Assembly (NCBI GenBank): GCA_040753555.1 | Contig: JBFMDZ010000001.1 | Coordinates: 12,693-76,692 of the forward strand | Reading direction: 5' to 3' | DNA length: 64,000 nucleotides | Source of the DNA: a bacterium | GTDB taxonomy: Bacteria; UBA9089; UBA9088 | In this document: positions 45,560 through 50,104 of the stretch, in pieces | Numbering within the stretch: the first letter of the stretch is position 1 | Layout of the letters: every line of letters starts with the position of its first letter | The notes under the pieces: generated by a model | Database searches by the model: none | Told to the model about the DNA's origin: nothing | What the model saw: the letters and a program-made list of their open reading frames with translations, nothing else | Translations under genes and position numbers: made by a program

Positions 45560-48500
45560 CTACCTCTTCATATTGACTATTTCTGTCAATATCTGGTCGT
45601 CTGTTACAATTATACGAGAATTTGCCTGAAATGCACGCTGGGCAATAATAAGGTCTGTAAATTCCTCAACAAGGTCAACATTTGCCATCTCAAGCTGATT
45701 AGGTTGGATTTTACCCCTTCCACTCTCACCTGGTTTTCCAATTAGCGCCTCTCCTGAATTTAGGGTTTCAGTAAAGAGGGTAGCTGATTCTTTAAGTAAG
45801 CCTGATGGATTAGAAAATGTTGCTAAGGCTATTTGGCCAAGGTTCTGAACCTGGTCATTTGTATATTTACCAACAATTACACCCTCTGAATTTATGCTCT
45901 TTGACTCAAGCTTTCCTGTTGTATAGCCATCCTGAGAGGAAATTTGTGCATTAGACTTTGAGGCATTTGGGCTATGATCAACAGAAAACTGATGTATCTT
46001 TGTAAAATCAGCGGTTATTTCAACAGAATCTGCGCCCTTATCACTTCCCTCTGGATCAAAGAGAAGACCTTTAAATTTTGTTCCCGATGTCCTCTCATCA
46101 GATGGTGATTCAAATACCTTAGAATTATCCTTATCATAATCTCCATTTTCATCAAAAACAGCAATTCCATAACCCGAAAATTTTTCATCAGATGAAGATG
46201 GATTTAGAACATTCCAAAGCCATCTATTGGTAGACAATTTTTCAAATTTATAGGTAATATCCCATCCCTTTCCAAGGCTATCATAGATTTGTTTTGAGAC
46301 AGAATATATATAATCGCTGTTTACACTTGTAGTAACAGGAGAGCCTGTATCAGATGTCTTATAGCCTGAGTATGTTGTATCAATTGATGTATTTGGTGTA
46401 AATATAATAGCTTCTGGTCCTGAATTTCCATTTGGAACAAATACATCAGCAGATAATGGCGAAACCTGGCGATAGTCAACCTCAACCCTTCCTGTTCCAT
46501 AAGACCTGTCAAGGATTACCCTGTCAACGCCATTTGCACCTGAACCATCCTGGAATGTAAAGTCAGAAACATCCTGAATAACACCATTAACCTTAAGGAC
46601 TAGTGTTGTAGAATCAACATCTGGGTTATCAAGGTCAAATGCATTGAGCCTTGTATAATCTACCCAGATATAATTACTATTTGGTGGATTCCCTCCTACC
46701 TGTGTTATTCTAATTTGATCCTCTCCACCTGTTCCTGTATTATCTAAAAATGTTACCTGAGAACTTGAAAGCATTGTAGGAGTGTCTGGAGTGGCGTTGT
46801 CAGCATAATAAACAGCAATTGTATCACTATCAACATCTCCATGGGGAAGGGAAAGCGTCCATTCTGCTCCTGAAGAAGGTAAAGGACTAAATGGGTCATT
46901 ATCTGTTGAATCACCATCAATGGGTTGTTTAATAACCTGTGTTCCTGGCTTTCCACTTCCTGCTGTTCCAAGGCTTTCAGCCTTTACCTCATTTGAGGTT
47001 GCATTTAGCCTAATAAAATCTCTTCCTGTTCCAGCCGCAGATGTTGTATCAGACCATCCATCAGATGGTGTTGGCCTTTCTGTTATAAGGTCCATAACAC
47101 CATTGTTATTTCCTCCCTCAACGGTTCCCAATGTTATATTTATCTCTGAGAAGAATGGTGTTGTTCCTGTTTCAGATAAAGAAATCCTTGCGCCCTCTGT
47201 CCTTGACTTTATGGTAAATTTATCTGTGGTTGGGTCATATTCTATTATGATTTTGGCATCTGAGGCATTTATCTCATTTAATAAAGACTGGACAGTTGGA
47301 TAATTTGATATATTTATCTCTCTGGATGTATATGTTCCAGAATCTGTTGCTATGGTTATTGTTCCATTTATTGTCCCTGCATCAAATTGGCTCCAGTTTC
47401 CAGCAAGGTTGACACTCTCTGCTCCATCTATTACCTCTATGCTTGAGCTAACCTCAGGCACTGCCTCTGTATCCTTAAAGTTGTTGATTGCCTTATAGTC
47501 AGAATTAAGCTGTAAAATGCCCTTTGCCTCAACCGTCTTATTGTAGTTATAGTTAGCGGTTGTAACCCCTCCACAACTGACTGGCGATACAGGAACATCA
47601 ACTGCCTCCAGACCTGTAGTTAAAAGCTTTGTCTTGGTTAGAAATCCATCAAGGGTTGCCTGTCTTACCGTTACTGATGAGTTTGTATTCATAATTGTAA
47701 ACCTATCATTCTTTGAGTCATATCTTAATGTTATTCCAAGTGGCAATGTTGTTCCTCCTGTCATATCAACCGCCTGATTAACATCATCAATAAAATTGGC
47801 TACTGAGGTATAAGAAGCTAGGTCAGCTGATGTCCAGCTAGCAGCCACTCCCGTTGAAGTTGTCCAGGTGAATTGTATAGTTCTTGCGGTTGGTGGAACT
47901 GGCGGCTCTGCATCCTTAAACCCATTATTAAACCCTGCCTTTGGAAAAATCTTATTAAGGTCTAGGCTATTAACCACAACATCCTCCCTTGACTTTGGAT
48001 TTGTATATGCAGCAAGGTAGACTGAGGTAATATCTCCCTCACCTGGAAGCTTTGCATGGGTTAAAAAGCCTTCTTCATGAGACTGTGAAACATAGATACC
48101 TTGAGTATTTTCAAGTTCAAACCTATCGGAAACAGGATCATAGGTAAGGCTTATAAGGTTTGTTCCCGCCTTTCCATTTACACCTGCTGTAACTGCGGCT
48201 AAAAAGTCAGCCACAGTTCCATAGCTTTGAAGCTGGGCAGATGTCCATGTTTCACCTCCACCACTCCAAGCAATAGTTATGGTTGAGGTTAAAGCATTAT
48301 TTGGCATTACAAGACCTGTTGCTGAGTTAAACCCTGCTCTATTAAATGGTTGAGAAACATCAAGGGAATTTGAAACAACCTCCTCTGTGCTTGTGGTTGA
48401 AAAGAATGTTATCTGGTCCTTACCACCTATACCTAAATTGTTGTTAAATGTATAATTTGCTCTATCTTGTGTCGCACCATCTACTTTTATTTGTAAGGTT

Positions 48501-50104
48501 GTTGGATCAACTGTAGAGGAGGAAAGATTAAATCCATTCCTTACATAGTCTGCGGTTATCTTTGAACCTACAACAGGTGGACCAGCTGTTCCTCCTGATG
48601 TAATAAATATTATCCTGTCAACACCGTTTCTGCTCCTTCCAATATTTAATGCGTCACCTCCCTCGTCGCCATTTGTTCCAGTATAAGGATAGATTATCTC
48701 TGTTTGACCATTGTCATCAAAGTAGTAGGAATTGTTTGGGGGAGCATAAAATCCTAATTGTTGGCCATTAAGGGCTCCTGCTTGTGCAGGAAGCTTATAC
48801 TGGCTATAGAGGGTTTCTACCCCTGTGGTTGGATCTGTAACATACAATTGTAGGCTTGTTGGGTCAACATCCGGGTTATCAAGCTCAAAGACAAGCTCAT
48901 TAGTAGTAAAATCTTGTCCTGTTGTATGTCCTATAGAATAACCAACCAGTTCATCGGTAACCTGACCTGGGGCTACTCCATAGTCATCCGAGGTATAATA
49001 ATATGCGTTTGTTGAAATAACATTACTGCTTTCTGGGTCTATTGCCTTCCACCTTAAATAATAGTTGTTTGGGTCTGTTGGGTCTAAAAGATGATCAAAC
49101 TCAATCTTTGCATCAATTGAGCCGTGATATGTCTTTGTTGGAATCTTTGCCTCTGTAAAAAAGCCTGTCCTTCCAGATGCGGGTGTCTCAGAGACAACAA
49201 TCTTTCCACCAACCTCTTTTATCCTTAAATTATCTGGGTCTACCTTTAAAACAAACTTATCCTCTTGGCTATATTCAATAGAAATGCCTGTGGTTGCAGA
49301 ATTATTGTTTATAGCATCTATTAGGTCTTGCGGTTTTGAGCCTAAGGAAAATGTTTGGGTATATCCCTCTGGTCCTAGTGTTATTGTTCCGGTTGGTGTA
49401 TTTTCAAAACCAGCTGTATCCCAAGAATTAGAAAGTGTAATTCCCAGCCCTCCCTCAGATACAGGAACAACGCTCTTTATATATTTCGCAAGGTTAAGAG
49501 ATATTGAATTAAATGCAGTATTTGTTGAGGAGTTAATGTTTCCACTAAAGGATATCTCTGATGTTACCTTTGGACTCATAATGTCATTTGTATCTATCAC
49601 AATTCCCTTTAAAGCACTACTTGTATCAATCTTCGTCTTGTTGTTGGCATCTATTACTAGCTGACCTGTTATAGAATCCCTCTCTGCATTCCATCCCAAT
49701 ACCTTAAAACCATTAGAGTTGTTTATAAGATTTCCAGAAGTGTCAAAGGTAAAGTTTCCCGCCCTTGTATATTTAGTTGCAGTGCCATCAGAGACAACAA
49801 AATACCCATCGCCATTTATAAGGAGGTCTGTTGAAATCTGGGTCTCCTTTACAGTTCCCTGGCTATGGACAACCTGAACAACACTAACCCGAGAACCCAA
49901 ACCAATCTGCATTGGATTTGTTCCTCCAAGCTCACCTGTTGGCTGCATAGCCCCAGATACTGTCTGGTTTAATAAGTCCTCAAAGGAAATCCTTGATTTC
50001 TTAAAACCAGGCGTATTTACATTCGCCATATTCCCAGCTATTACATCAAACCATAGCTGGTTAATCCTCATCCCTGTAATCCCTGAATAGACTGACCTTA
50101 ACAT
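45560..50104 (-). CDS. flgE: Flagellar hook protein FlgE, very large (1514 aa) with internal repeated insert domains.
   Basis: Conserved Flg N-terminus (MLRSVYSGITGMRINQLWFDVIAGNMANVNTPGFK) and C-terminus (LEMANVDLVEEFTDLIIAQRAFQANSRIIVTDDQILTEIVNMKR). Adjacent flgD and flbD. Confidence 0.8.
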   Translation of the reverse strand: MLRSVYSGITGMRINQLWFDVIAGNMANVNTPGFKKSRISFEDLLNQTVSGAMQPTGELGGTNPMQIGLGSRVSVVQVVHSQGTVKETQISTDLLINGDGYFVVSDGTATKYTRAGNFTFDTSGNLINNSNGFKVLGWNAERDSITGQLVIDANNKTKIDTSSALKGIVIDTNDIMSPKVTSEISFSGNINSSTNTAFNSISLNLAKYIKSVVPVSEGGLGITLSNSWDTAGFENTPTGTITLGPEGYTQTFSLGSKPQDLIDAINNNSATTGISIEYSQEDKFVLKVDPDNLRIKEVGGKIVVSETPASGRTGFFTEAKIPTKTYHGSIDAKIEFDHLLDPTDPNNYYLRWKAIDPESSNVISTNAYYYTSDDYGVAPGQVTDELVGYSIGHTTGQDFTTNELVFELDNPDVDPTSLQLYVTDPTTGVETLYSQYKLPAQAGALNGQQLGFYAPPNNSYYFDDNGQTEIIYPYTGTNGDEGGDALNIGRSRNGVDRIIFITSGGTAGPPVVGSKITADYVRNGFNLSSSTVDPTTLQIKVDGATQDRANYTFNNNLGIGGKDQITFFSTTSTEEVVSNSLDVSQPFNRAGFNSATGLVMPNNALTSTITIAWSGGGETWTSAQLQSYGTVADFLAAVTAGVNGKAGTNLISLTYDPVSDRFELENTQGIYVSQSHEEGFLTHAKLPGEGDITSVYLAAYTNPKSREDVVVNSLDLNKIFPKAGFNNGFKDAEPPVPPTARTIQFTWTTSTGVAASWTSADLASYTSVANFIDDVNQAVDMTGGTTLPLGITLRYDSKNDRFTIMNTNSSVTVRQATLDGFLTKTKLLTTGLEAVDVPVSPVSCGGVTTANYNYNKTVEAKGILQLNSDYKAINNFKDTEAVPEVSSSIEVIDGAESVNLAGNWSQFDAGTINGTITIATDSGTYTSREINISNYPTVQSLLNEINASDAKIIIEYDPTTDKFTIKSRTEGARISLSETGTTPFFSEINITLGTVEGGNNNGVMDLITERPTPSDGWSDTTSAAGTGRDFIRLNATSNEVKAESLGTAGSGKPGTQVIKQPIDGDSTDNDPFSPLPSSGAEWTLSLPHGDVDSDTIAVYYADNATPDTPTMLSSSQVTFLDNTGTGGEDQIRITQVGGNPPNSNYIWVDYTRLNAFDLDNPDVDSTTLVLKVNGVIQDVSDFTFQDGSGANGVDRVILDRSYGTGRVEVDYRQVSPLSADVFVPNGNSGPEAIIFTPNTSIDTTYSGYKTSDTGSPVTTSVNSDYIYSVSKQIYDSLGKGWDITYKFEKLSTNRWLWNVLNPSSSDEKFSGYGIAVFDENGDYDKDNSKVFESPSDERTSGTKFKGLLFDPEGSDKGADSVEITADFTKIHQFSVDHSPNASKSNAQISSQDGYTTGKLESKSINSEGVIVGKYTNDQVQNLGQIALATFSNPSGLLKESATLFTETLNSGEALIGKPGESGRGKIQPNQLEMANVDLVEEFTDLIIAQRAFQANSRIIVTDDQILTEIVNMKR

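Follow-up and report, generated by a model that had tools for sequence, protein, structure and literature searches.

A 64-kb stretch of DNA from an uncultured bacterium, hereafter the window, encodes what its sequence identifies as a FlgE-family hook protein of 1514 aa with a giant, internally repeated insert. In the reading we favor, with a probability of roughly 0.7, this protein is the structural subunit of the hook, and the insert adds outer layers that thicken and reinforce it. The gene is free of internal stops, and its product has a mass of 162 kDa and a pI of 4.4. The same sequence is deposited at NCBI as MEW6102257.1; that record is an automatic annotation, and we found no published description of the protein.

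FlgE termini frame a giant insert

Pfam and NCBIfam models place the N-terminal D0/D1 in residues 1 to ~200, and D2 with the C-terminal D1/D0 in residues ~1256 to 1514, leaving ~1000–1050 residues between them. Together with the uninterrupted reading frame, this placement bears out an earlier note on this DNA, which had described canonical FlgE termini around about 1000 extra residues. The rod/hook D0 motif is present (PF00460, residues 7–35, 21.1 bits, cutoff 20.7), as are the families of the hook-specific D1 and D2, PF22692 (residues 96–154, 43.2 bits, cutoff 27) and PF07559 (residues 1256–1394, 33 bits, cutoff 22.7), and PF06429 (Flg_bbr_C, residues 1470–1512, 47.1 bits, cutoff 23); the FlgEFG model TIGR03506 reaches 249 bits (cutoff 70). 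None of the FlgE equivalog models of NCBIfam is passed, the best being NF004241 (326 bits, cutoff 469). Each of them matches in two stretches with the insert between, and we ascribe the low scores to the insert and to divergence rather than to an absent part of the core.

The nearest solved structure is that of FlgE from Campylobacter jejuni, of the Campylobacter/Helicobacter type with domains D0–D4 (PDB 5jxl, E=1e-57), and the D0/D1/D2 core is common to both proteins. The N-terminal core aligns to C. jejuni residues 1–190 and the C-terminal core to 612–850; hhalign is confident for residues 1–194 (against C. jejuni 1–183) and again for residues 1266–1514. By profile-profile alignment, both proteins carry their insertion at the same D2 site, between C. 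jejuni residues ~183 and ~612. The C. jejuni insertion, however, spans ~386 aa and two domains (D3/D4), as against ~1000 aa and at least eight domains here, and no confident profile alignment joins the two (hhalign confidence ~0–3 across the insert). The Campylobacter-specific family PF21464 is present in the Campylobacter matches and absent from the 1514-aa protein and its orthologues, and TIGR02489 (flgE_epsilon) stays below its cutoff (299 against 413); a large FlgE of the epsilonproteobacterial type is ruled out on these three results. We also ruled out a spirochaete-type, lysinoalanine-crosslinked FlgE, as D2 holds no conserved Cys for such a crosslink. The lone Cys, residue 844 inside segment X2, is not a conserved one; several orthologues lack Cys altogether. 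An acidic and nearly Cys-free composition is as expected of an exported axial protein.

At 865 aa, C. jejuni FlgE has been called ‘one of the longest’ (PMC5069557), which agrees with the earlier judgement that 1514 aa is well beyond known hook proteins. The protein is nearly twice as long as the longest hook proteins studied so far.

Table 1. Features of the flgE locus, in coordinates of the window, with residues of the encoded protein.
Feature	Residues	Position	Strand	Description and basis
Candidate sigma28/sigmaD-type promoter		50677..50703	(-)	TAAAGTTT...GCCGATAT, ~20 nt upstream of flgD start; consensus match
flgD		50205..50657	(-)	Hook cap/scaffold, 150 aa; directly upstream of flgE, same operon; PF03963 1.3e-21, NF007197 4e-31
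Shine-Dalgarno		50114..50120	(-)	AAGGAGG, 9 nt upstream of flgE ATG; read from sequence
flgE		45560..50104	(-)	Giant flagellar hook protein; uninterrupted ORF, TIGR03506, PF00460, PF22692, PF07559, PF06429
FlgE N-terminal core	1-219	49448..50104	(-)	D0, Dc, N-terminal part of D1, first D2 strands; PF00460, PF22692
A1 module	222-325	49130..49441	(-)	Flagellin_IN-type; PF07196 match, profile match to A4
X1 segment	326-401	48902..49129	(-)	Conserved non-repeat beta segment, shared scaffold; conservation, prediction
B1 module	402-522	48539..48901	(-)	Beta-sandwich with ~60-aa internal loop expansion; self-BLAST, profiles
B2 module	523-580	48365..48538	(-)	B4 and B3 profile matches
A2 module	581-688	48041..48364	(-)	Flagellin_IN-type; self-BLAST to A3
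A3 module	712-828	47621..47971	(-)	Flagellin_IN-type; self-BLAST and profiles
X2 segment	829-894	47423..47620	(-)	Conserved non-repeat segment with ‘DYNYNKTVEAKGILQLN’ motif; conservation
A4 module	895-992	47129..47422	(-)	Flagellin_IN-type; most widely shared module
X3 segment	993-1080	46865..47128	(-)	Conserved non-repeat segment with ‘GGNNNGVMDL...P.DGW’ motif; conservation
B3 module	1081-1152	46649..46864	(-)	Divergent; profiles, AF2
B4 module	1153-1213	46466..46648	(-)	
FlgE C-terminal core	1214-1514 and stop	45560..46465	(-)	Rest of D2, D1, D0; PF07559, PF06429
flbD		45314..45511	(-)	65 aa; directly downstream of flgE; PF06289 3.6e-27

Two module families and three conserved segments make up the insert

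The two internal repeat families proposed earlier are recovered, well above chance level, both by self-BLAST (E values down to 3e-18) and by profiles built from orthologues. The first, predicted to occur in four or more copies, has four (A1–A4) by self-BLAST and profiles, and its repeat is the known Flagellin_IN motif/domain (PF07196) of FliD, FlgK/L and flagellins. A1 passes PF07196 when scanned alone (28.0 bits, cutoff 22.7) and scores 22.3 bits within the full-length protein. Each of A2–A4 scanned alone falls below the Pfam threshold; these modules are tied to A1 and A4 by the orthologue-built profiles (1e-13 to 3.7e-10), and several orthologues have precomputed PF07196 matches. The A2–A3 similarity is strong in self-BLAST of masked fragments (E=2.8e-18, 40% identity), and the profiles cross-detect every copy (A1 to A4 at 1e-13; A2 to A3 at 3e-21). 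A4 also gives a weak DUF3383 match. Enlarged FliD proteins (888 and 929 aa) carry these modules too; here, by contrast, four copies lie within a hook protein, interleaved with the second module type.

For that second type the earlier note had counted three copies; there are in fact four (B1–B4), the divergent B3 having been missed. The B modules are ~60-aa beta-sandwiches, paired by self-BLAST of masked fragments at E values down to 2e-11, and B2 is found by the B4 profile at 1.9e-14 and by the B3 profile at 8.4e-7. B2 is 58 aa long in 20 of 20 orthologues, and the internal loop of B1 differs in length between clades.

AlphaFold2 (AF2) models the whole insert with medium confidence (pLDDT 71, pTM 0.46), with higher pLDDT in A1 (80–94), A2 (87–95) and A3 (73–89) and, in a dedicated model, in B3 with B4 (87.4). 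Searched with the whole insert model, Foldseek returned FliD D2-D3 (5xlk/5xlj) at a probability of 0.99 and flagellin and junction/cap structures at 0.82–0.96, matches that we attribute to the A modules on the strength of the model confidence and alpha/beta composition there. The A modules are thus predicted to have the alpha/beta fold of the outer domains of FliD (D2-D3) and flagellin (D2/D3), with Foldseek probabilities of 0.9–0.99. The B modules have no sequence match in Pfam, PDB or PHROGs. Their predicted structure may resemble phage tail-fibre/tailspike and neck anchor domains, namely the N-terminal anchor domains of T7 gp17, CBA120 TSP4 and the DT57C head-completion protein, as well as Pfam DUF2460 / distal tail protein.

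Between the modules lie three non-repeat segments. X1 is predicted to form long beta-hairpins (pLDDT 45–74), has no match when scanned for families, and is kept in all orthologues and in both smaller and other giant FlgE relatives. X2 has 73% identity with the near clade and 53% with the far one, and its residues Y852, N855, K856, G862, I863 and L864 are invariant; its pLDDT is low in the monomer model, and it too is found in relatives of other sizes. X3, present in all scaffold relatives, has a very low pLDDT (27–35), and its invariant residues include G997, G998, N999, N1000, N1001, D1005 and W1017. This combination of high conservation yet low monomer pLDDT is compatible with segments whose ordering would depend on contacts made within the polymer.

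A proposed role in thickening the hook

From this anatomy we infer the following model. The D0/Dc/D1/D2 core (residues 1 to ~219 and ~1214 to 1514) would leave the cell through the flagellar type III system and assemble beneath the FlgD cap into the helical tube typical of hooks. The ~1000-aa insertion, in a D2 loop at the topological site of Campylobacter D3/D4, would fold into at least eight compact domains, A1–A4 and B1–B4, strung on X1–X3. These outer domains may project radially and pack against neighbouring subunits, building further concentric layers and so a much thicker, stiffer and more break-resistant universal joint. Thickening and stiffening by extra outer layers is the most likely role of the insert; its mechanical side is an analogy to the Campylobacter hook, in which D3/D4 lack homology to the insert. 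The C. jejuni hook gains width from D3/D4, 280 instead of 180 Å, as well as inter-subunit contacts; these domains strengthen it, and their deletion leaves broken flagella in >90% of cells (PMC5097172).

The enlargement also resembles that of the giant flagellins (>1000 aa) of Bermanella/Oleibacter, in which a central insert of duplicated domains gives thicker filaments (PMC6248924), although there the enlarged axial protein is the filament protein FliC and here it is the hook protein FlgE. We found no equivalent described for hooks in the literature. Recombination among flagellar genes can turn FliD D2-like domains into outer domains of flagellins (PMC11532411), and the A modules are predicted to share that fold.

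The gene lies in a hook operon

As the earlier note had stated, only flgD and flbD accompany flgE; no other flagellar neighbours lie within the window. Upstream of flgD, a consensus match marks a candidate promoter: TAAA-N14-17-GCCGATA occurs once in the window (0.12 expected by chance; at least one match in 11% of shuffles), and the -10 element GCCGATAT is retained at the orthologous position in L002. Orthologous loci of some relatives read fliK-flgE-flbD-fliL-fliM-fliN-fliO, and those of another clade flgD-flgE-flbD-fliL-fliL, flanked as in the window by aroE-serS-corA-ftsK. Unlike in relatives, fliL does not follow flbD in the window. The giant gene thus sits in a canonical hook-operon context, in the window with flgD and flbD and in relatives within fuller operons.

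The giant FlgE might instead form only a proximal or distal zone of the hook, or serve an alternative flagellum, with an ordinary FlgE encoded elsewhere building most of the hook. The operon of the window is indeed a detached three-gene unit, and related metagenome-assembled genomes (MAGs) carry three to four large FlgE paralogues each, some in tandem, so that the hook protein may not be a single one. However, in every orthologous locus the ~1500-aa gene stands where a hook gene canonically does, with fliK or flgD and flbD-fliL-fliM as neighbours, and a further flgE was not seen within ±10 kb of these loci. C. jejuni likewise has two flgE genes, but the larger paralogue is the hook builder (PMC5069557). 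We therefore regard such a specialised paralogue as unlikely.

Conservation of the insert matches that of the core

Twenty full-length orthologues from independent assemblies and separate studies align over 100% of their length (1491–1549 aa, 41–75% identity), and ~24, counting further representatives and cluster members, have an identical 14-part module order. Their source MAGs are labelled Candidatus Desantisbacteria, ‘bacterium’ or Nitrospirota. Against the far clade, identity is 32–55% in the insert modules and 43–59% in the FlgE core; A4 reaches 53% there and 78% against the near clade. The alignment holds dozens of invariant residues within the insert. By these comparisons, the insert is conserved to the same degree as the core, whereas the surfaces of C. 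jejuni D3/D4 are variable (PMC5097172), and the architecture appears both real and under selection.

This conservation bears on a further reading, in which the hook core mainly presents the outer modules as a display scaffold or adhesin for attachment to surfaces, partner cells or polymers. Single A4-like modules do occur in giant surface proteins sorted by the T9SS, alongside DUF11, beta-propeller and FG-GAP repeats, the B fold may be like domains of phage tail fibres and tailspikes, and flagellin outer domains have known non-motility functions (PMC11532411). Yet for an insert with core-level conservation and a module order fixed in every orthologue, structural packing is a better fit than diversification driven by ligands. 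What the B modules would resemble in phage proteins are the N-terminal parts that anchor them to the particle rather than those that bind receptors, and scans of the giant FlgE and its modules detected no lectin, enzyme or other family of binding domains. A hook, moreover, consists of only ~120 subunits and adjoins the cell surface, which would make it a poor adhesin. We consider a role in attachment quite improbable.

The window comes from a MAG, in which mis-assembly could in principle create internal repeats. That an ordinary flgE was inflated by frameshift, gene fusion or assembly duplication, the first and last of which the earlier note had warned of, nevertheless deserves almost no credence: ~24 orthologues of similar length share the module order, the longest direct DNA repeat within flgE is 39 nt at 82% identity, and the module copies, only 26–42% identical in protein by self-BLAST, must stem from ancient duplications.

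A wider family of giant FlgE proteins

An exhaustive search of 1.84 billion representative proteins gave 75 matches, FliD proteins and T9SS surface proteins among them; A4 is the best-matching stretch for most of the 75. Modular giant FlgEs such as the 1514-aa protein form a rare family, with as many as four paralogues in one genome. More tentatively, the Desantisbacteria-like and neighbouring uncultured lineages may possess a distinct flagellum, its hook built of combinatorially assembled giant FlgEs (from 1000 aa to 1793 aa or more, a genome having up to four paralogues) whose 8–10 outer domains per subunit, recruited from FliD/flagellin outer domains and phage tail-fibre anchor domains, form an ordered multi-layer coat. 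This is a possibility to which we give less than even odds; if true, the coat would in effect be a protein sheath around the universal joint, and such a hook would be the counterpart of the giant flagellins, with the largest flagellar axial subunit known. The 1514-aa protein is itself not the extreme of its kind, as relatives reach at least 1793 aa.

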